Source: a bacterium (GTDB lineage: Bacteria; JACRDZ01; JAQUKH01). From it: a stretch of DNA of 33,708 nucleotides. Shown here piece by piece: positions 177 through 26,244 of this stretch. The notes under the pieces are model-generated. The model did no database searches, was not told where the DNA came from, and saw nothing but the letters and a program-made list of their open reading frames with translations. A program made the position numbers and the translations under genes. The DNA lies in NCBI GenBank assembly GCA_028719205.1, contig JAQUKH010000028.1, forward strand, positions 1 to 33,708, given 5' to 3'. Each line of letters starts with the position of its first letter. Positions within the stretch are counted from its first letter, which is position 1.

Positions 177-1190
177 ATGCAATCTAAAACACACATCAGC
201 GTAAAAGACCTATCAATATGGTACAACGGCCAGCAGGCTTTGAATAACATAACTATTGATATTCCTGATAAAAAGATCACGGCGATTATCGGGCCGTCAG
301 GCTGCGGGAAGACGACTTTGCTTAAATCTTTTAACCGCTTGATTGAATTACGAGAAGGGATAAAAATTCAGGGCGAGGTTTTGGTTGACGGCGAGAATAT
401 TTACGGTCCGGATGTTGAAGTTATGGACCTTAGGAAAAAAATGGGTTATCTTTCCCAGCGTCCGCAGGTGTTACCGATGTCTATCTATGAAAATATTGTT
501 TATGGCCCGAGGCTTTTTGGCATAAAAAATAAAAAGGAACTGGATATAATTGTTGAAAAGTATTTGAAAGAGGCTCATTTATGGGATGAAGTAAAAAACA
601 GGCTGCATAATTCCGCTTCAGGCTTATCAATAGGGCAGCAGCAAAGGCTTTGCCTTGCAAGGGGTTTGGCTGTTGAGCCGGAGGCTATATTGGGAGATGA
701 ACCTACTTCCGCTCTGGATCCGATCTCGTCAAACCGGATCGAGGAACAATTTTTAGAGCTAAAAAATCGTTATACGATCGTGCTGGTTACTCACAGTTTA
801 AGCCAGGCTAAACGGATCGCTGATCATGTAGTATTTTTATATCTTGGAAATTTGGTTGAACACGGCCCGGCGGACGTTATTTTTAAAAATCCGAAATATA
901 TGAAAACACAAAGTTATATTAACGGAAAAGTTATTGAAGAGCCTGATATAGATAAAACCCTGGATTTGAAAGGAACAGTCCTCTCCGGCAATTTTGTGAA
1001 GATAAAACTGGCTTTGGAAGAACTCGAAGCGGGGAAAGTATTAAAAATTATTATTGACGATAATCCTGAAAAATCAGGGATCCTGAATTTTATTGAATTT
1101 GACGGACATAAGGTCCTTGAAATAAAAAGGCTAAACACAAAAGATTGGGAAGTAATTGCCAGGAAACAGGAGCGGGATTATTTTGTTTAA
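177..1190 (+). CDS. pstB: Phosphate ABC transporter ATP-binding protein with C-terminal TusA/SirA-like extension
   Basis: Walker A GPSGCGKT, signature LSIGQQQRLCLAR, DEPTSALDP, H-loop VTH; extra ~80 aa starting KTLDLKG resemble the TusA fold. Confidence 0.9.
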   Translation: MQSKTHISVKDLSIWYNGQQALNNITIDIPDKKITAIIGPSGCGKTTLLKSFNRLIELREGIKIQGEVLVDGENIYGPDVEVMDLRKKMGYLSQRPQVLPMSIYENIVYGPRLFGIKNKKELDIIVEKYLKEAHLWDEVKNRLHNSASGLSIGQQQRLCLARGLAVEPEAILGDEPTSALDPISSNRIEEQFLELKNRYTIVLVTHSLSQAKRIADHVVFLYLGNLVEHGPADVIFKNPKYMKTQSYINGKVIEEPDIDKTLDLKGTVLSGNFVKIKLALEELEAGKVLKIIIDDNPEKSGILNFIEFDGHKVLEIKRLNTKDWEVIARKQERDYFV

Positions 1191-1987
1191 AATTTATTTT
1201 CGCGGGTAAAAATAAAAGCTTTGTGCCAGGAATGATCTTTTAAAAAGCTTGTTCCTGAAAATAAAAGGTCAACCGGTATAGATAAAAATACAGAAATATA
1301 CAGTAACAAATAATATAGCGGAACCGGTATGCCTTTTGAATGCAAGATCAGTTTCTGCTTAATTGGCATTATATCAACCGAATAAGTATTTTTCAAAGAC
1401 GCTCCGGCCTCTTTGAATGCCGATAAATATTCCATTTCACTCCGGATGAACAATATATCGCTGAATGAATTTTTATCGCGGGCCCGGTTGGGGGCTACTT
1501 CCAGAATAAAAATTTTGCCGTTTTTATTGAGCAGCCTGACCATATTACCCACACTTTTTTTAAATTCTTTTTCATCTGTGATATGCTGAAGCACGGTAAC
1601 ACAGGTTATCAGGTCAAAAGTATCCGCGGGAAGTTCTATCTCGGCGATCGCCGCGTTCAGGAAATCCACGTTCTTATCGGCCGGTATTCCGGCAATTTTG
1701 ATCATTTCATTTGATATGTCCGCGCCTGTTACCTTGGCTCCTTTTTGCGCGAGGATACGGCACCACCTGCCTACTCCGCAGCCCAGGTCAAGTACTTTTT
1801 TATTTTTAATATCAATGGAATTAAGCATCTTGTAAAAAACCTTTTTATGTATCAGGTCAATATATTTATTATAAAAATACGGTGAACCATAAGAGCATAT
1901 AGCTTTAAATCCGTTTTGAGAATTGCCGTACTGCTGCGCCCTGTTATCCCAATATTCCTTTTTTATATCAGGCATATTTATATCCAT
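1187..1987 (-). CDS. Class I SAM-dependent methyltransferase
   Basis: Motif I VLDLGCGVG, GADIS, FDLITCVTVLQH; overlaps the GT2 3' end. Confidence 0.85.
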   Translation of the reverse strand: MDINMPDIKKEYWDNRAQQYGNSQNGFKAICSYGSPYFYNKYIDLIHKKVFYKMLNSIDIKNKKVLDLGCGVGRWCRILAQKGAKVTGADISNEMIKIAGIPADKNVDFLNAAIAEIELPADTFDLITCVTVLQHITDEKEFKKSVGNMVRLLNKNGKIFILEVAPNRARDKNSFSDILFIRSEMEYLSAFKEAGASLKNTYSVDIMPIKQKLILHSKGIPVPLYYLLLYISVFLSIPVDLLFSGTSFLKDHSWHKAFIFTRENKF

Positions 1988-3263
1988 CTTCGACCACCTT
2001 TACTCCGAATATTTTTATTGTTATAAAGTTTAGAAAACCCAAAGTTTTTGGGACCAATCCCATATATAAACTATAAAAAGGAAAAAGAGGTAAAATATAG
2101 TAATATTTATTCCTTCTTCTGCGTTCAACAGATATAAGCAGTAAATACATTATCAGCATGCAAAACACATAGAAATACAGGAACAGAGCAGGATTGGTGA
2201 AATAATAGTCCGGGATCAAATTAAGGCCTGCCAAGTTATCAAAGAAATTTAAAAAGGAAACTGCGAGGAGAACAATTGAAAGCATTCTTAGGGGATGAAA
2301 AATAACCGATATGAAAATGTTATAAATTATGTATTGGTAGATCGAATAAAATTTCCTGGGTAAAAATCTTAACTGGCCGGCCATAAGGGTATCGATTTTA
2401 ATTAATGAAAAATCCCATCCCATCCTCTGTTGTGTAAGATCCTTTAAAGTCTTTCTTTGTTTCGTTAATACGCTTAACCGCCCGTCATAATAAATATGCC
2501 CGCCGCTTGTTAATATCCGCAAAGATGTTTCATAATCTTCTCCATATACGCTTTGGCTGTGTTTGGATAAAACGGATTCAAGAAAGCCGCGCTTAAAAAA
2601 AGCGAAAGCGCCGGAGATAACGGTGAGTTCTTCCATGGATTTTTTTGCCAATCCCATGGAAATTTTATATTCAAAGTTCTGAAGCCGCTCTAAGATCGAA
2701 TTCCCTTCCACCAGAATTCTTACAGCGCAAGCGTCAAAGGAAGAATTTTGAAAATTATTTAAAACCTCATCAAAATCAGATATTTTTTTATTATGTTCCT
2801 TAGGATTTAAATTCAGTATCGCTGAATCCGGATCCATTACGATCACTGTATAGATCCTTTCCGGCAGTTTTTTTAGTCCATTAAGTATGCTTGCCGGCTT
2901 TTGTAAATTATGTTCATTTGTAATAAAAGGAATGCCGCGTTCTTTTAAGAGAGCGGCGGTATTATCACTGGAAGCATCATCAATAATTAATATATTTTGA
3001 TAACCGAAAGGTTTTATATTTTTAACAAAGTTTTCGAATGTCTTTGAAATATTATAAACAGAAATAATAACCTTGTATGAATTTAACCCGGAGGCATTTG
3101 CCCCGTTTTTATTCCGCGCATTTTCTTTTTTTACGGAGGTTGGCAGCATGGAATTACCTTCTTTGGTATTTTTTTTCCGGTAGATCAATTTTATTATAAA
3201 ATCAACTGAATCTATCAGCGGGATATACAGCCCTATAACGAGTGCTAATATTATTTTTACCAT
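1968..3263 (-). CDS. Processive membrane GT2 glycosyltransferase (PgaC/IcaA/YaiP-like polysaccharide synthase)
   Basis: IIDDASSD, VMDPDS (DxD), GEDY (TED-like), QQRMGW (QxxRW-like); N-terminal TM and several C-terminal TM helices. Confidence 0.8.
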   Translation of the reverse strand: MVKIILALVIGLYIPLIDSVDFIIKLIYRKKNTKEGNSMLPTSVKKENARNKNGANASGLNSYKVIISVYNISKTFENFVKNIKPFGYQNILIIDDASSDNTAALLKERGIPFITNEHNLQKPASILNGLKKLPERIYTVIVMDPDSAILNLNPKEHNKKISDFDEVLNNFQNSSFDACAVRILVEGNSILERLQNFEYKISMGLAKKSMEELTVISGAFAFFKRGFLESVLSKHSQSVYGEDYETSLRILTSGGHIYYDGRLSVLTKQRKTLKDLTQQRMGWDFSLIKIDTLMAGQLRFLPRKFYSIYQYIIYNIFISVIFHPLRMLSIVLLAVSFLNFFDNLAGLNLIPDYYFTNPALFLYFYVFCMLIMYLLLISVERRRRNKYYYILPLFPFYSLYMGLVPKTLGFLNFITIKIFGVKVVEDGYKYA

Positions 3264-4060
3264 GTGTGTATAAATCCTATTCCAATAACTTCCTGCTCGG
3301 CGTTAATTGGTTTTTTACGTTTTTGAAAGCTGATGTCAGCTGTCAGCCACCAGTCTTTTTTAATATTCATTTTCCAGAGCGCGGCAAAAGTATCGGCCCT
3401 GAATTTCCCTAATTCTTCCACGACAAGATATGATTCAGAATTATTAATATACATAAATCCAAATTCATGGCGGGAAGAAAGAAAATAATCCGCTTTTAAA
3501 AGAAAGGAATTATTTGATACCGATAAAGAATTGACATCAAAAGTTGTAACGGCATGAAAGACCTTTACATGTAAATTAACTTTCGGTAAAGAAAAATCTG
3601 TCGCCCCTAAAGAATATATGTGTACATGGGCATCTTCAAAAATATTAGACTTATATCCGAAATGAAGAATATTTTTGCTTTTCAAATTATAGGTTAATTC
3701 CGTATCGGAGAACAATTTAGGGAAGGTCCATTTGTTTGAAGAAAAACCCAGGGTTTCTCTTAAAGCGAATTTATCGTCAAGTTTAAAAGAGCCGCCGATT
3801 TCCTGTAAACTTTCATTTGTCTTGAATTTATCCTGATAGGTAATTTGGGCAAAAAGAATGATATCTTTTAATTTCCTGTCAATAAATAACAGTGAGGTTC
3901 CCTTGGTTCCGCTGGTGCCGAAAGAATAGTTTTCCAGAAAATATCTGTTTTGGATTTCATAATATTTTTCTTCAGCAGTAAATACCGTTGAGAAAAGCAG
4001 TATTAATAAAATCATAGATATAATTATGATATAAACATTTTTTTTAAACATTTTGTTCAA
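3257..4060 (-). CDS. Outer-membrane beta-barrel protein, YaiO-like
   Basis: Signal peptide, alternating amphipathic beta-strands, C-terminal IGIGFIHTW beta-signal; adjacent to a GT2 as in yaiO/yaiP. Confidence 0.65.
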   Translation of the reverse strand: MNKMFKKNVYIIIISMILLILLFSTVFTAEEKYYEIQNRYFLENYSFGTSGTKGTSLLFIDRKLKDIILFAQITYQDKFKTNESLQEIGGSFKLDDKFALRETLGFSSNKWTFPKLFSDTELTYNLKSKNILHFGYKSNIFEDAHVHIYSLGATDFSLPKVNLHVKVFHAVTTFDVNSLSVSNNSFLLKADYFLSSRHEFGFMYINNSESYLVVEELGKFRADTFAALWKMNIKKDWWLTADISFQKRKKPINAEQEVIGIGFIHTW

Positions 4061-5609
4061 CCATTGTTAATATCTTATTTTTAAAATATTCAGGTGAATT
4101 AGCTAACCTCACCGGATAAGCCTCGGTAACAGACATTATATACAGCAAAGAACGGAGGCGTGAAGGGAAATACTCAACGTTATATTTATTTTTAAAATAG
4201 GTGATATTGTTTTGCATAATTTTATCTGTTATCTGGATGAAATCCTGGAGTTCTTTTGACCTAGGCTGGATACTGATGCCCCGAAGTAATTTATTTTTGG
4301 TTAAAGGGATCTGTATATTTTTGTATAAAATCAGGTCCTGCAGACCGGGGTCCTGTGTCATTTTAGATCCGGCAAACGGGATAACTGACGGATAGATAGA
4401 AACCTCACAGCCTTTTTCCAAATATTCGATACATTTACTTAAAGTAAGGAAAACATCGTTAAAAGAACAGTCCGGGGATATTAAAATTATATCTAGAAAG
4501 GGTTTTATTCCAACCTCTAAACTGATATTTAATATTTTATCAATTTTATTATAAATTGTTTCTTTGTTGTATTCTTTTAAAGTATTTATTGAAAAAGATT
4601 CAACGCCGTAACCTATCAGCCTGAATCCGGCTGATTTCATCAGTTTCAGGTCATTCTCATCCAAAGAATCTATCCTGCAGGAAGCGATAAAAGTAAGATC
4701 TTCAGGGATCAAATTATCTTTTTTGCACTTGATTATATCCTCGAAAATGTTAGGATTCCTTTTTTCCCCTCTAAGAACAAAAATATCATCCTGAAAAATT
4801 ATTGTTTTAACAGAAGGATATTGACTGGTTATTTTGGTTAACATCAATATTATATCCTTTGAGGTCAACCTTACTAATTTTGCTTTATGGCAGTTATTTG
4901 CAAAACTTAAAAAGTTGGTATAGCAGCAAAAAGAACAATTCATCGGGCAGTAATTCGAGGTCATTAACCTGATACTGTTAACTTCGCGGAGATGATAAGT
5001 ATTTTCCTTAAGGAGAGAATTATCCATATGGGAAATAGCCTTTATTTTATGCCAATAAGCCGTGACAGGGATTTCCTGATAAGGAATACTGAAAGTGGCA
5101 AGCTTAAATAGTTCATAATCCAGAGGGATATTGTGATTCCTGATGAATATTCCGGATTCTTTATAAACTAAACCGGGTGTATGTTTGTTGACAACTCCAT
5201 TAATTTTTAATGAAGTACAAATATTTAGTAAAGGGATTTCTCCTTCGCCCATGACACAATAATCCAGGGAAGAATTATTTAATACTGTTTCATATTCAAA
5301 CGTCGCTCCAATTCCTCCTCCTATACAAATAATATTTTTATATTGCGATTTTACTAAATTGATCAGTGAAAGGTCATAAGGCAAAGTCATGCTTGTAATG
5401 GAAAAACCTATGATCTTTGGATTATAATATTTGACCATTGACATAAGGGTCTGGTAAGGATCTAAGTACAGGTTAGGGTCAAAAACAGCGCATTTTATTC
5501 CATAGTTCCTGACAAATCCGCAGATCCTCCATATGCCTAATGGCGGGGCAATAAATGACTGATTTCCTTTAAGGGGATCATATGGGCCTACCAAAAGAAC
5601 GTCCAGCAT
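4044..5609 (-). CDS. B12-binding domain radical SAM protein
   Basis: PPLGIWRI and IGGGIGAT cobalamin-binding N-domain; CPMNCSFC motif; IGYGVES. ATG at 5609 follows a GGAG RBS; the longer 5636 start lies inside the terminator. Confidence 0.85.
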   Translation of the reverse strand: MLDVLLVGPYDPLKGNQSFIAPPLGIWRICGFVRNYGIKCAVFDPNLYLDPYQTLMSMVKYYNPKIIGFSITSMTLPYDLSLINLVKSQYKNIICIGGGIGATFEYETVLNNSSLDYCVMGEGEIPLLNICTSLKINGVVNKHTPGLVYKESGIFIRNHNIPLDYELFKLATFSIPYQEIPVTAYWHKIKAISHMDNSLLKENTYHLREVNSIRLMTSNYCPMNCSFCCYTNFLSFANNCHKAKLVRLTSKDIILMLTKITSQYPSVKTIIFQDDIFVLRGEKRNPNIFEDIIKCKKDNLIPEDLTFIASCRIDSLDENDLKLMKSAGFRLIGYGVESFSINTLKEYNKETIYNKIDKILNISLEVGIKPFLDIILISPDCSFNDVFLTLSKCIEYLEKGCEVSIYPSVIPFAGSKMTQDPGLQDLILYKNIQIPLTKNKLLRGISIQPRSKELQDFIQITDKIMQNNITYFKNKYNVEYFPSRLRSLLYIMSVTEAYPVRLANSPEYFKNKILTMVEQNV

Positions 5610-5620
5610 TGGGTATCTCC

Positions 5621-5664
5621 AAAATAAAAAAGTCACTTAAGTTTAAAAACCTAAGTGACTTTTG
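5621..5664 (-). terminator. Intrinsic terminator/attenuator in the 5' leader of the radical SAM-GT2 operon
   Basis: Minus strand AGTCACTTAGGTTT-TT-AAACTTAAGTGACT followed by a T-tract (TTTTTATTTT), immediately upstream of the RBS. Confidence 0.8.
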
Positions 5665-5690
5665 TCCTTGAAAAACGACTCCTGTCCTTA
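5654..5690 (-). promoter_or_regulatory. Tandem leader motif (GGRCADRAGYCRYTT x2) overlapping the terminator
   Basis: Minus strand TAAGGACAGGAGTCGTTTTTCAAGGACAAAAGTCACT; matches the leader at 7854-7889. Confidence 0.6.
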
Positions 5691-5737
5691 TTTTTGCTGA
5701 CAGATCAATATATTTATCAGAGCATTTACTTAAATCA

Positions 5738-5766
5738 ATGCTATTCCTCTTTTTTTAGTTTGTCAA
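5738..5766 (-). promoter_or_regulatory. Sigma70-type promoter of the minus-strand operon
   Basis: TTGACA (5766-5761), 17 bp spacer, TAGCAT (5743-5738). Confidence 0.65.
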
Positions 5767-5806
5767 TATCTATTTATTATCTATTTATCATCAAGGATAA
5801 TACTTA

Positions 5807-5835
5807 TTGAAATAGATCCTGAATTAAAGTATAGT
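5807..5835 (+). promoter_or_regulatory. Sigma70-type promoter of glgB
   Basis: TTGAAA, 17 bp spacer, TATAGT ending 9 nt before the ATG. Confidence 0.5.
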
Positions 5836-5844
5836 ATTCTTACT

Positions 5845-7758
5845 ATGGACAACGAAATAAGCCTGTTTACGGATTATGATATTCATCTTTTTAAAGAAGG
5901 CAATCATTTTACCATTTATGAAAAATTGGGTTCGCATCTGATGAAGGTAAATGGTGTTGAAGGAGCCTATTTCGCGTTATGGGCGCCTAACGCTGTGAAA
6001 GTTTTTGTTATCGGTGATTTTAACGCGTGGAATACCAACGCGAATCTGATGTCCTTAAGAAAAGACGGATCCGGTATCTGGGAAATTTTTATACCGAATG
6101 TGGTAAAAGGCGCTGTATATAAATATCATATTGTTTCCAAATACCGTAATTATAAAGTCAATAAAGGAGACCCTTACGCGTTTTACTGGGAAGTGCCTTC
6201 AAAGACCGCGTCGCGTGTCTGGGATCTGGATTACAAATGGAATGATGCGTCATGGATGAAAGACAGGATCCATCACAATAGTTTAAACGCGCCTATTTCG
6301 ATCTATGAAGTTCACCTTGGTTCATGGAGAAGGGTCCCTGAAGAAAAAAACCGGTTTTTAACCTACCGTGAAATGGCGACTATTTTAACTGATTATATTA
6401 AGGCAATGGGATTCACGCATGTCGAGTTTTTACCTGTTATGGAACATCCGCTTTACCGTTCATGGGGGTATCAGACCGTCGGATATTTCGCGCCAACGAG
6501 CCGTTACGGCACACCGCAGGATTTCATGTTCCTTGTTGATTATCTGCATCAGAATAATATTGCCGTAATACTGGATTGGGTGCCGTCGCATTTTCCGTCG
6601 GATGAACACGGGCTTTCATATTTTGACGGGACGCATCTTTATGAACATGAAGACCGGCGGAAAGGTTTTCATCCGGATTGGAAGACCCATATTTTTAATT
6701 ATGGAAGAGGAGAGGTTTGGAATTTTCTTATCAGTAACGCGTTATTCTGGCTGAAGAATTATCATATTGACGGGATCAGAGTGGACGCGGTAGCGTCGAT
6801 GCTGTATCTTGATTATTCACGCAAAGAAGGCGAGTGGATCCCGAATAAATACGGGGGCAGGGAGAACATCGAAGCGATAGATTTTATCAAGCGGTTCAAT
6901 GAGGTTATTTACGGTAATGTAGAAGGGGTCCAGACTTTCGCGGAAGAATCAACGGCTTGGGGTATGGTATCGCGCCCTGTGCATGTCGGCGGATTGGGCT
7001 TCGGGATGAAGTGGAACATGGGCTGGATGCACGATACGCTTGAATATTTTAAGAAAGATCCGCTTCACCGGAAGCATCACCAGAACGATATCACATTCAG
7101 TATGTGGTATGCCTTTACCGAGAATTTTCTGCTTCCGTTTTCTCACGATGAGGTAGTTCACGGAAAGGGTTCGCTTTTTGGAAAAATGTCCGGAATAGAC
7201 ACCTGGCAGAAATTCGCGAATTTAAGGCTTTTGTTCGGATTTATGTATATGCATCCCGGCAAGAAACTTTTGTTTATGGGTGATGAGATCGCCCAGTGGA
7301 AGGAATGGGATGAGGCGCACAGCCTGGAATGGGATGTCCTTAAATATCCCGATCACCAGGGGATCAGGATGTGGGTCCGCGATCTTAATTATTTTTACAG
7401 GAATGAACCTGCGATGTATGAACTTGATTTTGAACTTGCCGGTTTTAAATGGGTGGATTTCCATGATGTGAATAACAGCATATTAAGTTTCTTGAGAATG
7501 GGGAAAACCACTGACGATAAAATACTCGTGATCTGTAATTTTACGCCTGTCATCCGGCATGATTACAAAGTCGGAGTGCCGGAGGATGGATTCTGGAAAG
7601 AGGTATTGAACAGCGACGCGAAATGTTACGGAGGCAGTAACCAGGGAAATATGGGGGGCGTTGAGGCGGTTGAATTCAATATGAATAATATGGATCATTC
7701 CATTTCCGTAACCCTGCCGCCGCTGGGGGTTGTGGTATTTAAAAAAGAGGCTGAATAA
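5845..7758 (+). CDS. glgB: 1,4-alpha-glucan branching enzyme (GH13)
   Basis: [64 protein letters not shown]. Confidence 0.97.
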
Positions 7759-7774
7759 AAATTTAAAAAAAGAC

Positions 7775-7802
7775 TTGACAAACAGAAAAAAAGTATTATT
7801 AT
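7775..7802 (+). promoter_or_regulatory. Sigma70-type promoter of the pilus-like operon
   Basis: TTGACA (7775-7780), 16 bp spacer, TATTAT (7797-7802), A-rich UP-like sequence upstream. Confidence 0.55.
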
Positions 7803-7853
7803 CAAATTATAGTTTTAAGAGTATTTTTTTTAAACTTCGATTTTTAGATCTCT

Positions 7854-7889
7854 GAGGGGCAAGAGTCATTTAAGGACATAAGCCGCTTG
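7854..7889 (+). promoter_or_regulatory. Tandem leader motif (GGRCADRAGYCRYTT x2) overlapping the terminator
   Basis: GAGGGGCAAGAGTCATTTAAGGACATAAGCCGCTT; matches the minus-strand leader at 5654-5690. Confidence 0.6.
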
Positions 7890-7926
7890 TTATACTGAAA
7901 AGTATAATAAGCGGCTTTTTTATTTT
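7880..7926 (+). terminator. Intrinsic terminator/attenuator upstream of the pilin gene
   Basis: AAGCCGCTTGTTATACT-GAAA-AGTATAATAAGCGGCTT then a T-tract; 17-bp stem with GNRA loop. Confidence 0.85.
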
Positions 7927-8059
7927 CAGGAAAAAAGGAGGTGAATAAAATAGTTATTCTTTTAATGTTTTATGTTGCTTATTCTATTTGAGATTGGCAT
8001 TAAAAGCTGTGGGGAAAGTTTTATTTACTTTTAATTAGAAATATATAAAGGAGTCAAAA

Positions 8060-8647
8060 ATGAAAAAAAGTATATTATTACTTGCAGCTTTTACGTTTTT
8101 GGTGGTATGTAATTCCTTTGCCGTGGCAGATATGACCGATAACGCGGCAGCCCATGTTTTTTTAAATATAGTTCCAAACATTGCTGTAACAGCTACTGAT
8201 GCTAATGTGGCAGCCCAAAGCTTACAGACAGGAGCAGTGCTGGTTCCTATTTCCTTCAGAGTTGATGCTAATACGGAAGCAGTTGATCTGTCTGTATTAG
8301 TTACTAATCTCTATAAAGGGAATGATCCAGCCGGAACCGAAGTGGCTCCAATTCTTCCTGCCGGTGGAGGCGTGCAAATTGACCCGGATAATGCTAACGA
8401 AATGGGCGGTGGTGACGGTTTTGCTGAGTTCGTTACAGGCGGCAGTTACACAAATGAAAAGGGAACTTTTGAGGGCATGCAAACTCAGGAAGTTATATTT
8501 GAAAGCTCTCAAAATGGCCATTTCAGCCAGAATGTCGAAGTTATTCCTTCATGGAGTAATGAAGACAATGAAAAACCTGTAGGCCAATACAGTGGTTATG
8601 TTATACTGTATAGTGCGGTTGTTGGTGCTTCACAGCCAGGGTATTAA
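8060..8647 (+). CDS. Secreted putative major pilin (alternative chaperone-usher type)
   Basis: AAGGAG RBS, Sec signal peptide, beta-rich body, N-terminal alternating strand AHVFLNIVP, C-terminal PVGQYSGYVIL like the GxYSGxV end of CS1/CfaB-type pilins. Confidence 0.6.
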   Translation: MKKSILLLAAFTFLVVCNSFAVADMTDNAAAHVFLNIVPNIAVTATDANVAAQSLQTGAVLVPISFRVDANTEAVDLSVLVTNLYKGNDPAGTEVAPILPAGGGVQIDPDNANEMGGGDGFAEFVTGGSYTNEKGTFEGMQTQEVIFESSQNGHFSQNVEVIPSWSNEDNEKPVGQYSGYVILYSAVVGASQPGY

Positions 8648-8711
8648 TTAACGTGTTTACCCTGGATAAGAACAGTGATTAATGCCAATCTCTTTTTTAT
8701 CTGGATATATT

Positions 8712-9533
8712 ATGGAAATAATAACCTTAAAATATGCAATAAGATATTTAATGGTGTGTTTTTTTCTTTTGGTATTGGTCTTTGATGTAAAGGTTAAGGC
8801 GGCGTTAGTTATAAAACCCGCTTACATCATGCAGAAATTGACCCAGAAGCGTATTTCAGATGTCTTTTATATTAAAAATGTTGGGGATAAGGAGGAGCGG
8901 TACCGGGCTACCGCTATTCATTTTATAGTTGGTGATAAGGGTGGTTTACAGGTTATACCTTCTGATGAATATTCCCTGGCTCAATGGATAAAGTTTAATC
9001 CTACTGAATTTATCCTGCCTCCTAATACCAGCAGGATGATCCGGTATTCCATAATTCCACAGGGAAAATTGAAAGAACGGGAATATTGGGGTGCCATCCA
9101 GTTTGTTCCATTGAAAGGCCAGACAGTGACTACTAAAGGGAAGGAAGGCCAGGATATATCCCTGGAAGTTGTGAGTGTTATACTGGTGCCGATTTATGGC
9201 AAGGTTGAAGGGACTAAATTTTCCGGCGAACTTTCCGGCTTTGAGGCCAAACAGCAAAAGGATGACATTAACTTGCTGTTCCGCGTTAAAAATACTAACG
9301 AGGGTGTTTTGCGCTTGCCAGGCCTTTGCCAGATTGTGGATAGTAATAACAAGATAATAAAAGAAGTTGAAATAAAATCAATCGTAGTATTTCCTGGAAA
9401 AAATCGATTGATGAGTGTTTCTATCAAAGAAAAATTAACTTCAGGAAACTATACCGCAAGGGTAGTTCTCGATAATAAGGAAGAAAAAATTTATCTGACC
9501 GGTGAAGCTAGTTTTATATATGAAAGTAAATAA
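8712..9533 (+). CDS. Putative periplasmic pilus chaperone (PapD/EcpB-like)
   Basis: Signal peptide; FYIKNVGD, WIKFNPTEFILPPNTSRMIR, EYWGAIQF, ILVPIY and VKNTNEG resemble a two-Ig-domain chaperone; start could be 8682. Confidence 0.7.
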   Translation: MEIITLKYAIRYLMVCFFLLVLVFDVKVKAALVIKPAYIMQKLTQKRISDVFYIKNVGDKEERYRATAIHFIVGDKGGLQVIPSDEYSLAQWIKFNPTEFILPPNTSRMIRYSIIPQGKLKEREYWGAIQFVPLKGQTVTTKGKEGQDISLEVVSVILVPIYGKVEGTKFSGELSGFEAKQQKDDINLLFRVKNTNEGVLRLPGLCQIVDSNNKIIKEVEIKSIVVFPGKNRLMSVSIKEKLTSGNYTARVVLDNKEEKIYLTGEASFIYESK

Positions 9534-12500
9534 AACCGTACTTATAATAATATTGAATGTTTTTTTTTATAATTTTTCCTTTTGCGCGGAAATCCAGCCT
9601 GCTCAATCTTCATCATGGGACTTTCCATCACAAAAAACCGTTTTACAAACAGCCTTGACGGGTTTTCACCTGCAGGGAAAAAAACGCAGCCAAAGTATTT
9701 ATATTTTTGATTTTGATATAGTGATAACTGAAGATAATTCCCGTTTGGTGCCGTTATTCCGTTTATTACGCCTATTGGGCGCTAACGGCCAGGTACAATA
9801 TGATAATCTGATAACCTTTCAAGTGGAAGCCGGGCCAAAAGTGAAACTGAATGCCGTTGAGCAATCCCTGCATGTGGAGAATAGAAATATTCCTGTAGAA
9901 ATCAAAATTGGGAATTCAGATGTTACCGGACGGGGTGAGATGTATGTTTCAGAAAAGATAATTAAAGAAGCCTTCGGTTTTGATTTTAACTGGAGCGAAG
10001 AAAATTATGAGTATACATTAAATACTGATAAATCCCTTGAATTGTTCAATCAAAACCGGCCGGGAGGGCAATCTCTGCTTTCCGCGAAAGTACAGGAACC
10101 TTCTTCATCGCTTTATGAAACTGAACCTGATGTTTATTCAGATACCTGCAGGTCTTTTTTTTCTTTTATTCAGCCTCAGTTGCGTGTCGATAGCCAATAT
10201 CACTTGGTCAGAGATGAACGTCATGTAGAAACTGTCGCGCATCCGGCTTTAACTTTATGGGGGAATTTTTCGTCCGGCATATACAGGATAAAATTGAGCC
10301 AGACTATCAATTATCCAAATGCGAAAATCCCAAGCATTATAAACTGGCTGGATGAAGGTGTATGGACCTCCAAGGAAGAAAATATGATCACAAAGGTTGG
10401 AGATACTAATTTCGGGTGCAGTGAACTGGTGGCTCCGGGGACAAGTGTTTTTGGAGCCAGCGTTAAATGGATCTCGCCGCAAAAAGAAAAGGATGTTAAA
10501 TATGACCGTTACCTTAAGCGACGAAGTATCGGGTATTTAAGCGAGGATAATTTTGAAGGGCTGGCTCAACTTGGTGCAACCGTAGAGCTATGGGTAAATA
10601 ACATTCTTATACAGACTAAAATTGTTGAAGAGCCGGCAATTGAAAGAGCCGGTTATGGTATTTACAGGTTTAATAGTGTTGGTTTGCTTGAAAAGGCCCT
10701 GAATGAGATAAAAATTGTAATTAAGCGTAAAGACGGAATGGTTGAAGAGTATTACAAGCAAATACTTGGGACTACCGCCCTCCTGCCGGCTGGAAGCTGG
10801 GCAATCCTCGGCGGAGCGGGAACCCGCCGCCAGAAAAATTTAACTGAAACTGTGACAGAAGGAGTTTTTTTTGCTTCACAAGTTAACTATGGTCTTACCA
10901 AGGCGGTAACTTTAGGATTAACCGTTGCGGCCCAGAATAAATTTGCCCTTCTTTTAGATACAACAGGAAGTGTTTCAAGATCACCGGAAAGTTATAATGT
11001 CGGCCAACAGGTCAATATACGTCTACTGGACAAGTTATTGCTGAAGGAAGAAGCAGCTAAGAGTATAAAAACTGCGGATGATACAAATGCCGGGGCTTAT
11101 AAGCTTGGGATAGAATATTACTTCAAAAAAATAAAATTGGAATCACAGTTATTTTCATACGCGCCGGGGTATATGAACGGATTAACTGATATAAGCGACC
11201 GGCGGGGATATTCAGCTTTTACCCGCTGGCCGTTATTAAAGAAACTGTCTATGAATTTAATGGGCCTGCGTGTTCATAATAATATTGATCATAGTGAAGA
11301 TTATACAAAAACAGAAGATATTGTCAGTTTAAGTTTAAGTTTTCCCGGTTTGATTCCAAAAACAGATATAAGATTAGGCACTTTTTATACAGATCTGGAT
11401 AATTTAACCGGAATGAATATTAGATCTATTACGCGTACATATATCGCTGATATGAATATCAATTTTACAAACGACCTGAACATGGAAGTCAGACACGTAT
11501 TTGGGGATAAGTCCGGCTTGCAGGAGACTGAGGATTTGGCTTATGGGTTGTCTGTCCCTGGCATTGATCAATATTTTTCCCGTGGAACCAGGGTCAGGAC
11601 AAGTTACAGTATAAATCCACGCAATGCCGTATCTTCCATGTACTGGAAAACAGACAGCCAGCGCCAGGCAGAAGTCTCTTATGAACATAAATACTATAAC
11701 AGTGAAGGTAAAAACACCTGGGATTCCCGTATTGATCTTGGTAAGATCATTAGTACCGGAAAGTTTTACAGCCATGGCAATATGGAATTCAAAATTGATG
11801 AATCCGGATATAACCGCGTCGGTTTGGAAGCGGATACAAAGAATAACGGCAAGGAATATTATTTTGGATTTTATTTTTCTTTAAATAATCTTTTCAGTAT
11901 TAGTGAAGGCAAATTTAAGAAAGTAACGCAGTTTGGTATTTCCCCTGAAATGGGAGGCGTAGAAGGTTTTGTATACCTGGATAAAGACGGTAATGGCCAT
12001 CGCGGAGCGGATGAGCCGGGATTACCAAATATACCCATTATGATGAACGGGCGCAGTTATGGAGAATCGGACCAGAACGGCAATTTTTTTATCTCTTGTA
12101 ATCCTAAAAAAGAATTTGTGACTGTGAGCCTGGACGAATATTCATTACCGGCCATATATATACCGACGCAGGGCAAACAGAAAGTATATTGGAAAGAAGG
12201 GATATTCAGCAAAGCAAACCTTGGATTATGTGTTACTAACGCGGTTTCCGGTGAAGTCAGTGCTTATAGCCTGGAAAACACTAAAAAAAGATTTCCCGGG
12301 TTACGTGTGATGCTGCTTATGGCTGATGACAAGAAAACCTTAATAAGAGACTCTGTCACAGGGTCTGACGGCAGTTTCTATATCGGAGAAATTAAACCGG
12401 GGAACTACATGCTGGATATAGATATTGATTCCGTGCCGGTTGAATATAAACCAATAGGTTTGCCCAGGGAATTAAACATTGTATCCGGTGCTGAACCGGG

Positions 12501-12543
12501 CGAACTTAAGGATTTTAATATTTTGTTGATAAAAAAGGAATAG
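9520..12543 (+). CDS. Large usher-like outer-membrane protein with C-terminal SdrD-B/carboxypeptidase-regulatory-like domains
   Basis: Signal peptide; ATVELWVNN...G.Y.F and NEIKIVI plug-like region; YGLTKAVTLG barrel strand; GFVYLDKDGNGHRGADEPG and TGSDGSFYIGEIKPGNY C-terminal repeats. Confidence 0.6.
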   Translation: MKVNKTVLIIILNVFFYNFSFCAEIQPAQSSSWDFPSQKTVLQTALTGFHLQGKKRSQSIYIFDFDIVITEDNSRLVPLFRLLRLLGANGQVQYDNLITFQVEAGPKVKLNAVEQSLHVENRNIPVEIKIGNSDVTGRGEMYVSEKIIKEAFGFDFNWSEENYEYTLNTDKSLELFNQNRPGGQSLLSAKVQEPSSSLYETEPDVYSDTCRSFFSFIQPQLRVDSQYHLVRDERHVETVAHPALTLWGNFSSGIYRIKLSQTINYPNAKIPSIINWLDEGVWTSKEENMITKVGDTNFGCSELVAPGTSVFGASVKWISPQKEKDVKYDRYLKRRSIGYLSEDNFEGLAQLGATVELWVNNILIQTKIVEEPAIERAGYGIYRFNSVGLLEKALNEIKIVIKRKDGMVEEYYKQILGTTALLPAGSWAILGGAGTRRQKNLTETVTEGVFFASQVNYGLTKAVTLGLTVAAQNKFALLLDTTGSVSRSPESYNVGQQVNIRLLDKLLLKEEAAKSIKTADDTNAGAYKLGIEYYFKKIKLESQLFSYAPGYMNGLTDISDRRGYSAFTRWPLLKKLSMNLMGLRVHNNIDHSEDYTKTEDIVSLSLSFPGLIPKTDIRLGTFYTDLDNLTGMNIRSITRTYIADMNINFTNDLNMEVRHVFGDKSGLQETEDLAYGLSVPGIDQYFSRGTRVRTSYSINPRNAVSSMYWKTDSQRQAEVSYEHKYYNSEGKNTWDSRIDLGKIISTGKFYSHGNMEFKIDESGYNRVGLEADTKNNGKEYYFGFYFSLNNLFSISEGKFKKVTQFGISPEMGGVEGFVYLDKDGNGHRGADEPGLPNIPIMMNGRSYGESDQNGNFFISCNPKKEFVTVSLDEYSLPAIYIPTQGKQKVYWKEGIFSKANLGLCVTNAVSGEVSAYSLENTKKRFPGLRVMLLMADDKKTLIRDSVTGSDGSFYIGEIKPGNYMLDIDIDSVPVEYKPIGLPRELNIVSGAEPGELKDFNILLIKKE

Positions 12544-19860: not shown

Positions 19861-20382
19861 ATGGGGATTGATATGATCGGTTTGAATTTAAGAAGAGTTC
19901 GAGAACAAAATGGATTTACACAGGAAGCAATCGCGAAAAAACTTGGGGTATCAAGACAAGCTGTTTGTATGTGGGAATCAGGAAAAAGGGAAGTAAGTGT
20001 ATCGAAGCTTATAGAGGTCGCTGAAATTTTTAATATGAGCATTGATGAGATAATAAGGCCAGGGAAAGTAAGACCAAATAATAATAATTATCCGGTTGTA
20101 AAAAATAAAAAAGAAAAAGCGGACCCTAAAACCTGTTTTGAATTAGACGCGCCTTACGCTAATGAGGTTTTATTAGTGGGTGATTTTAATTCCTGGAACG
20201 CGGGGGGGATACTGTTAAAGAAAAATGAAAAGGGATTATGGAAAATTGAATTAGCGCTTAATCCCGGAAAATATGAATATAAGTTTATAGTTGACGGAAA
20301 ATGGCAGAATGATCCTGCTAATACTGATACAGCCGTAAATTCATACGGCACAACTAATTCGGTAAAGGAAATAACTAAATGA
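19861..20382 (+). CDS. XRE-family HTH regulator fused to a CBM48/AMPK-beta-like glycogen-binding domain
   Basis: N-term LRRVREQNGFTQEAIAKKLGVSRQAVCMWESG; C-term EVLLVGDFNSW...PGKYEYKFIVDGKWQNDP...NSYGTTNS. Confidence 0.9.
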   Translation: MGIDMIGLNLRRVREQNGFTQEAIAKKLGVSRQAVCMWESGKREVSVSKLIEVAEIFNMSIDEIIRPGKVRPNNNNYPVVKNKKEKADPKTCFELDAPYANEVLLVGDFNSWNAGGILLKKNEKGLWKIELALNPGKYEYKFIVDGKWQNDPANTDTAVNSYGTTNSVKEITK

Positions 20383-23378: not shown

Positions 23379-23395
23379 TATAACTCAAATTAAAA

Positions 23396-23478
23396 ATTTT
23401 ATACAACTGACGGCATAGGATGGTTTTACCATCGGGGAGTATGAAATAGAGAAAAGTATTTAGTCGACCGTCTGGGCA
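23396..23478 (+). ncRNA. ZMP/ZTP (pfl) riboswitch aptamer
   Basis: P1 TTTTATAC/GTATGAAA; ACTGACGG; P2 GATGGT-TTT-ACCATC; GGGGAG; linker; GTCGACCGTCTGGGCA; pseudoknot GACGG (23409-13) with CCGTC (23468-72). Confidence 0.9.
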
Positions 23479-23508
23479 TTCTAAAATTAGATACTCAGAC
23501 GGTTTTTT
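23467..23508 (+). terminator. Riboswitch expression-platform terminator
   Basis: ACCGTCTGGG...CTCAGACGGT followed by a T-tract; its 5' arm is the aptamer P3/pseudoknot, so the two folds are mutually exclusive (ON switch). Confidence 0.85.
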
Positions 23509-23553: not shown

Positions 23554-26244
23554 ATGAAAACAATATCACTTATGATTGATGGAAAGATTTATTCCGGAAA
23601 TGAAAACCAGAGCGTTTTGGATGTAGCTATAGAAAATGGGGTCTTTATTCCGCATTTATGCCATGACCCCCGGCTTGAGGCTTATGGCGGGTGCCGTATG
23701 TGTATAGTTGAAATCGAAGGAATGCGCGGGATGGTTACTTCCTGCACGGTGAAAATTAAAGAGGGAATGAAGGTTGTTACTAATAACGAGCTTCTAAACC
23801 GTCATAGAGTTATGATCCTGAAGTTTCTTCTGGCCAGTCATCCTAACGAATGTATGACCTGCAATAAATCAGGAGATTGTAAATTACAGGATCTGGCTTA
23901 TCATTATAAAATTGAAAATATCAGTCCGCTGCAAAAAGAAGAGAGGTCCTTTCCGCTGACAAAAGATAATCCTTTAATAGAGCTGGACCGGAACAAATGC
24001 ATAACCTGCGGCAAATGCGTAAGGATTTGCAACGAAGTTGTACAGCGTGACGTCTGGGCTTTCGCGAAACGAGGTATTAATACGGTAGTAACAACTCCCA
24101 TGTACCGTTCCATGGAAGAATCTGGCTGCGAGTTCTGCGGGCAATGTGTTTCGGCCTGTCCTACCGGCGCTTTAACTGAAAAGGCGAGCAAGGGCAAAGG
24201 CCGTTTATCGGATATGAAAAGAGTGCGTACAACCTGCAGTTACTGCGGGACCGGCTGTAATTTTTATTTGAACGCGAAAGATAATAAAGTGGTAAAAGTT
24301 ACTTCCTGTTTTGAGGGGCCTGTGAACCAGGGTAATCTTTGCGTGAAAGGAAGATTCGGATATGAATTTATAAACAGCCCTGACCGTATAATGAAGCCGA
24401 TGATACGGAAAAACGGCAAACTGGAGGAAGTGGAATATCAGGAAGCGATCGATTACACCGCGCGGAAATTTCTTGAGTTGAAGAAAAAATACGGGCCGGA
24501 TAGTTTGGGAGGATTTTCTTCTTCACGCTGTACAAATGAAGAAAATTATGTTACTGCCAAATTGGTCCGGGCGGTTTTTGGAACAAATAATATTGATAAC
24601 TGCGCTCGGGTCTGCCATGCGCCTTCCGTCGCTGGTTTGTCCGCCTGCTTCGGTTCGGGCGCGGCGACTAATTCTTTTGACCAGATCGAAGACGCAGATG
24701 TTCTGTTTATAACCGGTTCAAATACTACTGAAGCGCATCCTATAGTCAGCCTTAAAGTAAAGAAAGCGCTGCGGAATGGTGCAAAAATAATAGTAGCCGA
24801 TCCCAGAAAGATAGAACTTGCTTATAAAGCCGAAATATGGCTCGATTTGCGGCCGGGAACAAATATAGCTCTTCTTAACGGAATGATGAATGTGATTCTT
24901 AAAGAAGGCTTGCAGAACGATAAGTTTGTAAAAGACAGGACGGAAGGTTATGACGCGTTTGTTAAAGTAGTCAGCAAATATACACCCGAATATGCTGAAA
25001 AAATTACAGGGGTAGACAGGAATAAAATAATAGAAGCCGCGAGATTGTACGCGAAGGCGGAAAAGGCGTCAATATTATACAGCCTTGGAATGACGGAACA
25101 TAATACAGGCACGCTGAACGTTATGTCCATGGGAAACCTGGCGATGCTTTGTGGCCAGGTTGGAAGAAGATCGACCGGTGTAAATCCTCTTCGCGGGCAG
25201 AACAATGTCCAGGGAGCGTGTGATATGGGGGCCCTGCCGAATGTGTTTTCAGGTTATCAGAAAGTTGATGACCCCGCTATTCGCGCGAAATTTGAAAAGT
25301 TCTGGGGAGTTAAACTTCCGGAAACAAAAGGCATGCAGTCAACAAAAATGATCGAGGCGGCGCATGAAGGAAAATTAAAAGGTTTGTTTATTCTGGGCGA
25401 GGATCCCGCTCACACGGATCCGAATATCAGCCTTGTAAAAGAATCGCTTGAAAAACTGGAGTTTCTTGTTGTTCAGGAATTATTCCATACAAAAACAACA
25501 GAGCTTGCTCACGTTGTTTTTCCTGCGGCAAGTTTCGCGGAATGTAATGGAACATTCACGAACGGAGAAAGAAGGATTCAGTTGGTAATGAAGGCGATAC
25601 CCCCGCTGCCAGGGCGTGAAAACTGGCAGACTATATGTGATATCTCAACGGCAATGGGTTATCCGATGTATTATAATAACGCGTTTGAAATTATGGAAGA
25701 GGTTGCGGCTGTATCTCCGATGTTTGCCGGTATAACTTTTGAAAGGCTGAAGGAAAAAGGTTTACAGTGGCCGATACCTGACAGAAAACATCCTGGGACT
25801 TGTACCATGTATGAAAAGGCTTTTAATTTCCCATCGGGATTAGGGAAGTTTAACGCGATCGAACATAAAGATCCGATCGAAATGCCGGATAAAGAGTATC
25901 CGTATACTTTAATTACAGGCCGTCGCCGCGAGCATTATAATAACGGTTCAATGACAAGGCGAAGTAACGGTATCATGGAGATCTGGCCTGAAGAAACATT
26001 AGAGATAAGTCCGTCTGACGCGAAAAAATTGGTGATTACCGACGGTGAATATGTAAATTTGATATCCCGCCGCGGAAAAGTAAAAATCAAGGCAAGGGTT
26101 ACTGAAAAAGCGAGAGAGGGAAGATTTTTTACCTCTTTCCATTATATAAAAACTTTGACAAATCTGGTTACTAATTCGGTTTTTGATCCCATGGCGGGAA
26201 CACCGGAATATAAGGCGTGCGCGGTCAAGGTGGAAAAAATATAA
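23554..26244 (+). CDS. fdhF: Cytoplasmic Mo/W formate dehydrogenase alpha subunit (Cys type) with NuoG-like Fe-S N-terminus
   Basis: IPHLC...GCRMC...SC [2Fe-2S], HPNECMTC, two CxxCxxC ferredoxin motifs, TCSYCGTGC, active site NCARVCH, PLRGQNNVQG, PEYKACAV; no Tat signal. Confidence 0.93.
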   Translation: MKTISLMIDGKIYSGNENQSVLDVAIENGVFIPHLCHDPRLEAYGGCRMCIVEIEGMRGMVTSCTVKIKEGMKVVTNNELLNRHRVMILKFLLASHPNECMTCNKSGDCKLQDLAYHYKIENISPLQKEERSFPLTKDNPLIELDRNKCITCGKCVRICNEVVQRDVWAFAKRGINTVVTTPMYRSMEESGCEFCGQCVSACPTGALTEKASKGKGRLSDMKRVRTTCSYCGTGCNFYLNAKDNKVVKVTSCFEGPVNQGNLCVKGRFGYEFINSPDRIMKPMIRKNGKLEEVEYQEAIDYTARKFLELKKKYGPDSLGGFSSSRCTNEENYVTAKLVRAVFGTNNIDNCARVCHAPSVAGLSACFGSGAATNSFDQIEDADVLFITGSNTTEAHPIVSLKVKKALRNGAKIIVADPRKIELAYKAEIWLDLRPGTNIALLNGMMNVILKEGLQNDKFVKDRTEGYDAFVKVVSKYTPEYAEKITGVDRNKIIEAARLYAKAEKASILYSLGMTEHNTGTLNVMSMGNLAMLCGQVGRRSTGVNPLRGQNNVQGACDMGALPNVFSGYQKVDDPAIRAKFEKFWGVKLPETKGMQSTKMIEAAHEGKLKGLFILGEDPAHTDPNISLVKESLEKLEFLVVQELFHTKTTELAHVVFPAASFAECNGTFTNGERRIQLVMKAIPPLPGRENWQTICDISTAMGYPMYYNNAFEIMEEVAAVSPMFAGITFERLKEKGLQWPIPDRKHPGTCTMYEKAFNFPSGLGKFNAIEHKDPIEMPDKEYPYTLITGRRREHYNNGSMTRRSNGIMEIWPEETLEISPSDAKKLVITDGEYVNLISRRGKVKIKARVTEKAREGRFFTSFHYIKTLTNLVTNSVFDPMAGTPEYKACAVKVEKI

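Follow-up and report, generated by a model that had tools for sequence, protein, structure and literature searches.

Two kinds of antitermination target come closest to the leaders described here. The targets of ANTAR-domain proteins are, in the accessible portions of the two reports, tandem stem-loops of at least 3 bp whose hexaloops carry A at position 1 and G at position 4 (PMC3369931; PMC8934654). The linkers of the eut targets are naturally 5-12 nt long, and linkers of 3 or 14 nt abolish the action of EutV according to the accessible part of the first report (PMC3369931); that of the second gives the same outcome for a 20-nt linker extension, and describes a Tyr of EutV that stacks on G4 and a Met 'plug' proposed to exclude tetraloops and small loops (PMC8934654). 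The RAT, bound by a dimeric CAT protein, is a palindromic stem-loop of roughly 30 nt that partly overlaps the terminator, as far as the available part of its source goes (PMC12591593). We analyzed a 33,708-nt stretch of bacterial DNA (contig JAQUKH010000028.1 of assembly GCA_028719205.1; hereafter the window), in which a first-pass annotation had noticed that the leaders of two operons share a tandem repeat running into a terminator, and had taken this for a variant ANTAR target that might also bind CsrA. The observation holds. The interpretation is upheld in part, in that the layout is that of factor-dependent antitermination, but the anatomy is neither that of an ANTAR target nor that of a CsrA site.

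The element consists of two 11-nt boxes, GGRCANRRGTY ... RGACAWAAGYC, abutting a strong intrinsic terminator. We class it as a factor-dependent terminator/antiterminator attenuator outside the RAT/CAT, ANTAR, CsrA, NusG-paralogue and Rfam families, and the leader that carries it probably acts as a so far uncatalogued switch that turns genes for the cell surface and the slime layer on or off. The window is contig C28 of a 2.59-Mb genome in 68 contigs with 37.6% G+C (G000), whose genus is sampled by three genomes (G000, G001 and G002) and whose phylum is sampled by six.

Two leaders with a common layout

The minus-strand leader (...TAAGGACAGGAGTCGTTTTTCAAGGACAAAAGTCACTTAGG...) precedes an operon headed by a radical SAM (S-adenosylmethionine) gene, and the plus-strand leader (...GAGGGGCAAGAGTCATTTAAGGACATAAGCCGCTTG...) precedes an operon for secreted proteins; every sequence that had been quoted for their shared repeat and terminator is present where it was reported. 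The 15-nt unit, with the consensus GGRCADRAGYCRYTT, has four exact matches in the window, two in each leader, and at 24192, within a coding region, is a fifth site that has one mismatch. With up to one mismatch allowed, shuffled versions of the window yield 0.21 matches, and none of 100 reaches five. The second unit of each leader does run into a strong intrinsic terminator, of 16 and 17 pairs respectively and both with a U-tract, and no other terminator-like hairpin in the first 20 kb is as strong as these two. The promoters are also borne out: both leaders lie behind near-consensus sigma-70-like promoters, at 7775-7802 (plus strand) and 5766-5738 (minus strand), with the quoted stretch TTGACAAAC...AAAAAAAG. 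The parts of the two leaders are as follows.

5738..5766, minus strand: sigma-70-like promoter of the radical SAM operon leader (TTGACA, 17-nt spacer, TAGCAT; 10/12 matches)
5653-5667 and 5673-5687, minus strand: exact matches to the 15-nt unit (pattern scan of the window)
5657..5687, minus strand: candidate antiterminator hairpin, whole (9-nt tip; minimum-energy fold -5.1 kcal/mol)
5687-5677, minus strand: its 5' box, GGACAGGAGTC
5667-5657, minus strand: its 3' box, GGACAAAAGTC
5618..5663, minus strand: intrinsic terminator and U-tract (hairpin 5663-5628, 16 pairs, loop of 4, tail TTATTTTGGA)
7775..7802, plus strand: sigma-70-like promoter of the secreted-protein operon leader (TTGACA, 16-nt spacer, TATTAT; 11/12 matches)
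7857-7871 and 7874-7888, plus strand: exact matches to the 15-nt unit (pattern scan of the window)
7857..7884, plus strand: candidate antiterminator hairpin, whole (6-nt tip; minimum-energy fold -8.7 kcal/mol)
7857-7867, plus strand: its 5' box, GGGCAAGAGTC
7874-7884, plus strand: its 3' box, GGACATAAGCC
7880..7927, plus strand: intrinsic terminator and U-tract (hairpin 7880-7917, 17 pairs, loop of 4, tail TTTTATTTTC)

On the minus strand, the 5' arm of the terminator overlaps the 3' box, and a few bases beyond the terminator lie a ribosome-binding site (RBS), GGAGA, and the start codon (ATG at 5609) of a gene for a B12-binding radical SAM protein. The plus-strand terminator likewise overlaps the 3' box, and is also the sole terminator after glgB, which ends at 7758.

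Recurrence of the element

Further copies, which the first-pass annotation had proposed to seek with covariance models, were found. Models were built from four and then from eight leaders, with a motif scan of G000 besides, and together they give five copies in G000 and three in G001, eight in all. Outside the window, the copies in G000 are these, each from the motif scan or a covariance model.

C3:37989-38084: copy of the element
C21:13966-14059: copy of the element
C18:4327-4401: copy of the element, somewhat degenerate (the fifth in G000)

The shared leader is thus confirmed as a recurrent, non-chance feature, and it is wider than first noted. Its distribution is narrow, with the motif present in two of the six genomes of the phylum. 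A covariance model (R1) run on 60 relatives found true copies in the congener G001 only and none in 55 further genomes; weak matches in G055, G023, G033 and G007 proved on reading to be plain terminators. Model R2 on five genomes and model R3 on the six phylum genomes added no copies, their weak matches being ordinary terminators; R3 recovered seven of the eight known copies and missed the plus-strand copy of the window. A scan of all GTDB species representatives for the exact pattern gave 65 loci, all of them inspected and none with the leader layout, so we regard them as chance matches, and a scan of JGI metagenome contigs for the pattern plus a T-tract gave two loci, both unrelated chance matches; either collection may omit records of G000 itself or of its near relatives.

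The element is also new relative to Rfam, as had been suspected. At gathering thresholds, Rfam 15 matches the window only at 23393-23484 (a ZTP riboswitch) and leaves the leaders unmatched, and permissive scans of all eight leaders return terminator-driven noise with E > 0.5; weak matches of the leaders to trpB and PyrG_leader are likewise driven by the terminator. A search of the literature on the control of PEP-CTERM and exosortase genes, mostly open-access, found no description of such a leader. The element therefore stands as uncatalogued, occurring in one genus only and having no counterpart in Rfam. A looser search by structure, with the loop pattern fixed but any helices allowed, gave 35 matches against 10-20 in shuffles, and 11 against 0-1 when a downstream T-run was added; four of the 11 are known copies and the other seven have no promoter, box and terminator layout.

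One further leader deserves mention. At C36:129-214 on the minus strand of G000, the order is a TTGACA promoter, AAAGGGCAAGTTAATTC, a GC-rich terminator and a gene with a signal peptide. Its first box resembles the 5' box of the motif, with a weak covariance-model score (E about 2), and this leader may be a diverged relative or a chance match.

Pairing between the boxes

Each unit had been read as a hairpin of 3 bp. Such hairpins can be drawn, but they are not the best-supported fold. We counted both fold models on the alignment of the eight copies, where six core pairs in eight copies make 48 cells. The model of two hairpins (3 bp each) pairs 41 of the 48 and shows no compensatory change; unit 1 pairs in 24/24 cells and unit 2 in 17/24, its middle pair being an A-C mismatch in six of the eight copies. 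When instead each half of box 1 is paired with the opposite half of box 2 (5' with 3' and 3' with 5'), every one of the 48 cells holds a standard pair and two compensatory changes appear (pair 12-62, GC in six copies and AU in two; pair 20-54, CG in seven copies and UA in one). Minimum-energy folds of the box-to-box segments (ViennaRNA) contain both inter-box helices in all eight copies at -5.0 to -12.2 kcal/mol, several copies with extra pairs within the tip, whereas the two-hairpin fold of the same segments comes to +0.8 to -4.0 kcal/mol. By pair counts and predicted energies, the boxes would thus be better described as the two strands of one pseudo-two-fold-symmetric antiterminator hairpin than as two hairpins.

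The conserved anatomy lies in the boxes: an outer helix (G-R-C / G-Y-C) and an inner helix (G-U-Y / R-A-C), each of 3 bp, flank a purine-rich 4x4 internal loop with AUAG, AGGA, AAGA or AAAG on its 5' side and AAAA or AUAA on its 3' side. In the minus-strand leader of the window these are GAC/GUC, AGGA/AAAA and GUC/GAC for outer helix, loop and inner helix. Above the inner helix there is often an A-G mismatch and one or two U-A pairs, and then a tip of free length. The gaps between the 11-mers measure 6, 8, 8, 9, 25, 29, 30 and 32 nt (the hairpin tip ranges from 7 to 33 nt), and in the orthologous pair on C3 of G000 and C44 of G001 the boxes are identical while the 30-32 nt between them have fully diverged. 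A spacer free in length and unconserved is what one expects if the spacer is the tip of a hairpin.

The competing helix is equally well defined. In the terminator 95.2% of the cells are paired, with six compensatory pairs, which none of 500 shuffles reaches, and the full leaders fold into it at -18.4 to -31 kcal/mol. Alignment columns 57-63, which hold the 3' strand of the internal loop and of the outer helix, are at the same time the bottom of the 5' arm of the terminator, and column 62 covaries with both of its partners, in the antiterminator and in the terminator. For the reading of motifs in general this carries a caution, namely that 'direct repeats' with self-complementary ends may be better explained as the strands of one symmetric hairpin.

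Genes behind the copies

All eight copies precede an RBS and a same-strand gene for an exported or envelope function, the two starting 5-120 nt after the copy with no second promoter evident. A TTGACA-type promoter precedes seven of them; the exception is the C18 copy, which follows a 31-codon lysine-rich open reading frame (ORF) instead. This ORF (MAKGMITKKNDKKKPVKTLKEKRLEKKAKKG, C18:4410-4505, minus strand) has a good RBS and lies directly 5' of the degenerate fifth leader and its ankyrin-repeat lipoprotein gene.

Genes for PEP-CTERM proteins, the cargo of exosortase, stand behind five of the eight copies (C3 and C21 in G000, and all three in G001). The remaining three precede an operon with a radical SAM gene that resembles exopolysaccharide (EPS) operons, the secreted-protein operon and the ankyrin-repeat lipoprotein gene on C18. 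The C3 copy comes directly after a large EPS locus that ends in an EpsB-type sugar transferase, the exosortase EpsH and a DUF3485 (EpsI-like) protein. After the C3 leader, an assembly gap (a run of N) falls in the middle gene of a three-gene PEP-CTERM cluster at about 39.6 kb; the three PEP-CTERM tails are nearly identical, and this repeat probably broke the assembly.

The two operons in the window are composed as follows.

1187..5609, minus strand: operon behind the minus-strand leader, four genes
4044-5609, minus strand: B12-binding radical SAM protein, first gene of that operon
3257-4060, minus strand: YaiO-type outer-membrane barrel, same operon
1968-3263, minus strand: PgaC-like family 2 glycosyltransferase, same operon
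1187-1987, minus strand: SAM methyltransferase, same operon
8060..12543, plus strand: operon behind the plus-strand leader, three genes without a family name (195, 283 and 1013 amino acids)

From its gene content, the minus-strand operon looks like an exopolysaccharide operon. The plus-strand operon had been called a pilus operon, a name we do not retain, as no pilin family was found in it. Its 195-residue protein, the only one of the operon that was translated and read, has a signal peptide; a search for homologues in the other five phylum genomes came up empty. Its 1013-residue protein matches Cu_amine_oxidN1 and SdrD_B weakly. The operon sits between glgB and malQ, inside a glycogen gene cluster, and has the look of an accessory insert that arrived together with its promoter and leader.

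Taken together, the best explanation of these contexts is a regulon made of exosortase/PEP-CTERM cargo and an exopolysaccharide set, that is, of extracellular matrix genes. The motif-less congener is also without an exosortase and without PEP-CTERM tails detectable by the query used; its genome is 92% complete, which leaves that absence unproven. No such leader precedes the radical SAM orthologue in G003, and none similar to it precedes the PEP-CTERM genes of G003 and G005 or the further ones of G001.

A different leader stands before another PEP-CTERM gene of G000. On C1, at about 33893-34000 (plus strand), the model RF03167 (c-di-GMP-I-GGC, of the GEMM-I clan) matches with 51.4 bits and E 1e-9, below its gathering score of 59, and is followed by a terminator and then by a PEP-CTERM gene at about position 34,077. 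Attenuation of such genes would therefore already be in use in G000. The leaders described here resemble c-di-GMP-I (GEMM-I) leaders in their succession of promoter, structured leader, terminator and PEP-CTERM gene, of which G000 has this one module, but they are much smaller than the aptamer and give no GEMM-I match even at permissive E-values; for want of such a match we discarded the idea that they are GEMM-I relics.

PEP-CTERM/exosortase systems are widespread in environmental bacteria. Haft et al. (2006) reportedly proposed a sigma-54 two-component system for the control of the cargo genes, and to our knowledge little else is known of how these genes are switched. If the predicted switch operates, the exosortase cargo, the EPS-like operon and further envelope genes of one uncultured lineage would form a regulon controlled after transcription initiation. 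The practical weight of this is limited, the motif coming from two genomes of one uncultured genus.

Relation to known antitermination systems

Like ANTAR targets, the leaders contain two similar short units of which the second overlaps the 5' arm of a terminator, and, as in ANTAR regulons, there are several dispersed copies and one ANTAR-domain protein in the genome. The ANTAR-like dual-hairpin anatomy of the first-pass annotation nevertheless does not stand. Neither unit can form a hexaloop with A1 and G4, as the available parts of the sources define it, since the loops have 4 nt (ANRR and AWAA); if they are extended to 6 nt (CANRRG and CAWAAG), C stands at position 1, and all second units have A at position 4. 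Unit 2 is without its own 3-bp stem in six of the eight copies, and gaps of 6-32 nt are too variable to match a linker as constrained as that of the eut targets in the accessible text. On loop, stem and linker alike, the element falls outside the ANTAR target family.

The likeness to the RAT is closer. As far as the available part of the source describes the RAT, the element has a similar shape, one imperfect palindromic stem-loop that spans some 30 nt or more and overlaps the 5' arm of the terminator with its 3' part, and the logic we propose is the same, with termination by default and a dimeric factor that stabilizes the hairpin to give read-through. Unlike the RAT, the element has a tip of free length, and its targets are surface and matrix genes in place of the sugar operons of the phosphotransferase system that RAT/CAT controls. 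The quasi-symmetry of the site fits binding by a dimer, as in the LicT-RAT structure. The box sequences do not seem to match the RAT consensus, and no RAT model is among the Rfam results for the window and the leaders. With no CAT protein found, we do not count the element as a member of the RAT/CAT system.

Candidate factors

An RNA-binding antiterminator encoded outside the window had been predicted. The layout agrees with such a factor, and the window indeed encodes no candidate for it; what fell away is the ANTAR-like dual-hairpin anatomy through which it was to act. We searched G000 and four relatives for the families CsrA, NusG, CAT_RBD and ANTAR, three of which the first-pass annotation had named as the ones to look for. 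Only ANTAR was found, on another contig; CsrA and a second NusG were not. The search for CsrA (PF02599) found nothing in the three genomes of the genus but gave matches in G003, G004 and three control genomes, and the first boxes read GGG, not GGA, in six of the eight copies, so the suggestion of CsrA-type binding at GGA is rejected. NusG (PF02357) has one match in G000, where no second NusG-family gene was found, and a leader for a NusG paralogue of the RfaH or LoaP kind was set aside. The only match of CAT_RBD (PF03123) in G000 is partial and below threshold (18.9 bits), inside a dihydropteroate synthase (Pterin_bind, folP).

ANTAR (PF03861) has a single match in G000 (65.9 bits), in a 240-residue GAF+ANTAR protein encoded on contig C3 between a BamD-like gene and pfkA. 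Each of the three genomes of the genus has one such gene, and the two other phylum genomes searched have none. It is the only recognizable candidate for the factor in G000, and a weak one. A naive scan for canonical ANTAR dual hexaloops gave 1411 matches and was uninformative, and a strict A1/G4 dual-hexaloop scan of the 468 terminator-like hairpins of G000 left two candidates, neither credible; the GAF-ANTAR protein is thus without an obvious classical terminator target.

Small GAF+ANTAR proteins (about 235-265 residues) that are 43-62% identical to that of G000 occur in about 30 of 400 other sampled genomes, diverse and mostly small, some with two copies. They form a widespread orthologous group without a characterized RNA target. 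Among the genomes with an orthologue, three weak matches of the hairpin model were dismissed as unrelated sequence, at least one of them protein-coding.

An attenuation model and its alternatives

With moderate confidence, we propose that the leader is an attenuator of two competing RNA folds, a weak antiterminator hairpin and a strong terminator, relieved by a trans-acting factor. In the first fold the 5' box (G-R-C, A-N-R-R, G-U-Y) would pair with the 3' box (R-A-C, A-W-A-A, G-Y-C); in the second, the intrinsic terminator would form, the bottom of its 5' arm being the same G-Y-C together with the AWAA run. As the terminator wins by energy, the default state should be OFF, with short transcripts and no expression. 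A trans-acting factor would clamp the conserved internal loop and the flanking G-C pairs and so stabilize the antiterminator; the clamped hairpin would sequester the three bottom pairs of the terminator, and RNA polymerase would read through. Such a scheme would follow the antitermination logic of RAT/CAT (BglG, SacY, LicT) and not that of the dual hexaloops of ANTAR. From the motif and its eight copies, the two covarying folds and the gene contexts we infer termination, its relief by a factor and the probable nature of this factor. The symmetry of the site suggests that it is most likely a dimeric RNA-binding protein; the candidates are a protein not yet recognized, the GAF-ANTAR protein in an unorthodox mode of action, and a small ligand. 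We tentatively extend the proposal to a minimal ligand- or protein-sensing antiterminator dedicated to the exosortase/PEP-CTERM matrix regulon, either a tiny riboswitch that binds a symmetric second messenger (cyclic di-GMP, c-di-GMP) or the first RNA target of the GAF-ANTAR class, recognized through the internal loop in place of hexaloops. The latter, if true, would widen the ANTAR recognition code and tie a signal sensed by GAF to matrix production.

Several points weigh against the attenuator and its factor. Only eight sequences are available, from two closely related genomes, and because the two copies with AU are close paralogues with a terminator arm in common, the compensatory changes come down to about two independent events; the helices are just 3 bp each. 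The ends of the boxes are self-complementary, so that the potential for inter-box pairing partly follows from the repeat itself, and for the same reason the slid-partner controls are not fully independent, nor are the two fold models independent of each other. The C18 copy, after its small ORF, and the plus-strand copy, after glgB, could double as gene-end terminators. As to the factor, CAT_RBD (PF03123) was not found in G000 whereas control genomes matched; by alignment, the sole ANTAR protein keeps the Tyr and Met that read hexaloops; the motif is found in none of 29 other genomes with a full-length GAF-ANTAR orthologue (43-62% identical); and the protein is also present in the motif-less congener.

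One alternative keeps two mini-hairpins apart, with 3-bp stems and ANNR loops; a dimeric ANTAR protein of altered loop specificity, here the GAF-ANTAR protein, would bind them and, by binding the second, block the terminator. The restriction of the gene to the genus within the part of the phylum searched (three of three genomes against none of two), the failure to find other known antiterminator families (CsrA, a NusG paralogue, CAT), the lack of a credible classical target among the 468 hairpins and the complete pairing of unit 1 (24/24) all speak for it. So does the distribution of the motif, which, among the five phylum genomes searched for both families (all but G005), is confined to the two in which ANTAR and exosortase are found together. 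Yet unit 2 has an A-C mismatch in its middle pair (six of eight copies), no pair is compensatory, an A1/G4 hexaloop is impossible in both units, and gaps of 6-32 nt exceed the natural range of 5-12 nt given in the available text on eut. The protein, moreover, keeps the Tyr for stacking on G4 and the Met 'plug' against tetraloops that the accessible account of EutV describes, and the 29 orthologue genomes without the motif and the congener that has the gene alone count here too. We consider this arrangement quite unlikely. Replacing the protein by a metabolite gives a new small riboswitch, in which the symmetric 4x4 loop and the flanking G-C pairs bind a small molecule that stabilizes the antiterminator (an ON switch), with c-di-GMP as an attractive guess. 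A direct ligand sensor is a fair rival to a protein factor: the internal loop is conserved, pocket-like and pseudo-symmetric, no dedicated protein factor was found in the family searches of G000, and the match to the GEMM-I clan with its terminator stands before another PEP-CTERM gene of the same genome. A lone hairpin that contains a conserved internal loop is also the form of some validated riboswitch aptamers (the NMT1/xanthine and folE/THF-II motifs). The element would, however, be very small for this, with six Watson-Crick pairs and eight loop nucleotides, the 5' side of its loop varies (AUAG, AGGA, AAGA, AAAG), a distribution over one genus is unusual for a metabolite sensor, and there is no likeness to any Rfam riboswitch model; such a riboswitch therefore seems to us unlikely.

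Two further explanations were weighed. Without any dedicated factor, the terminators could be leaky promoter-proximal or gene-end terminators whose read-through the weak hairpin tunes passively (with temperature, nucleoside triphosphates, polymerase speed or NusA/NusG), or the boxes could be DNA sites. That the terminators are far more stable than the antiterminator, and that two copies come just after an upstream gene (glgB and the 31-codon ORF), fits a passive role, but the minus-strand copy of the window has no gene upstream on its own strand, and the sequence of the boxes is conserved far beyond the needs of pairing while promoter spacers, tips and terminator stems drift. The orientation of the boxes and their register with the terminator are also fixed, but their mutual spacing varies, which does not fit a dimeric DNA-binding site, and we rate passive tuning or DNA sites as very unlikely. 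The short terminated transcripts, of roughly 90-110 nt as estimated from promoter and U-tract coordinates, might themselves be the product, small RNAs of one family with a role in trans or in the titration of a protein by way of the boxes. A strong promoter followed by a strong terminator, and conserved purine-rich boxes common to eight loci, would suit small RNAs; each copy, however, precedes an RBS and a same-strand gene at 5-120 nt with no second promoter evident, the downstream genes are functionally coherent, and CsrA, the protein usually titrated by GGA-rich small RNAs, was not found, all of which makes this highly improbable.

Other features of the window

The glycogen gene cluster that holds the plus-strand operon comprises glgB, malQ, a galT-like gene, glgA, a glycosyltransferase gene of family GT4 and a gene for a DUF4912 protein. 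It also encodes, at 19861-20382 on the plus strand, a 173-residue protein in which an XRE-type helix-turn-helix (HTH_3) is fused to a glycogen-binding module (AMPK1_CBM / CBM48), and which could be a glycogen-sensing transcription factor.

The ZMP/ZTP riboswitch (RF01750) at 23393-23484 on the plus strand scores 57.9 bits against a gathering score of 39. It lies directly 5' of a gene (23554-26244) for an 896-residue molybdopterin oxidoreductase with NuoG-like Fe-S domains; the protein resembles the alpha subunit of formate dehydrogenase, an uncommon gene to find behind a ZTP sensor of one-carbon and folate stress.

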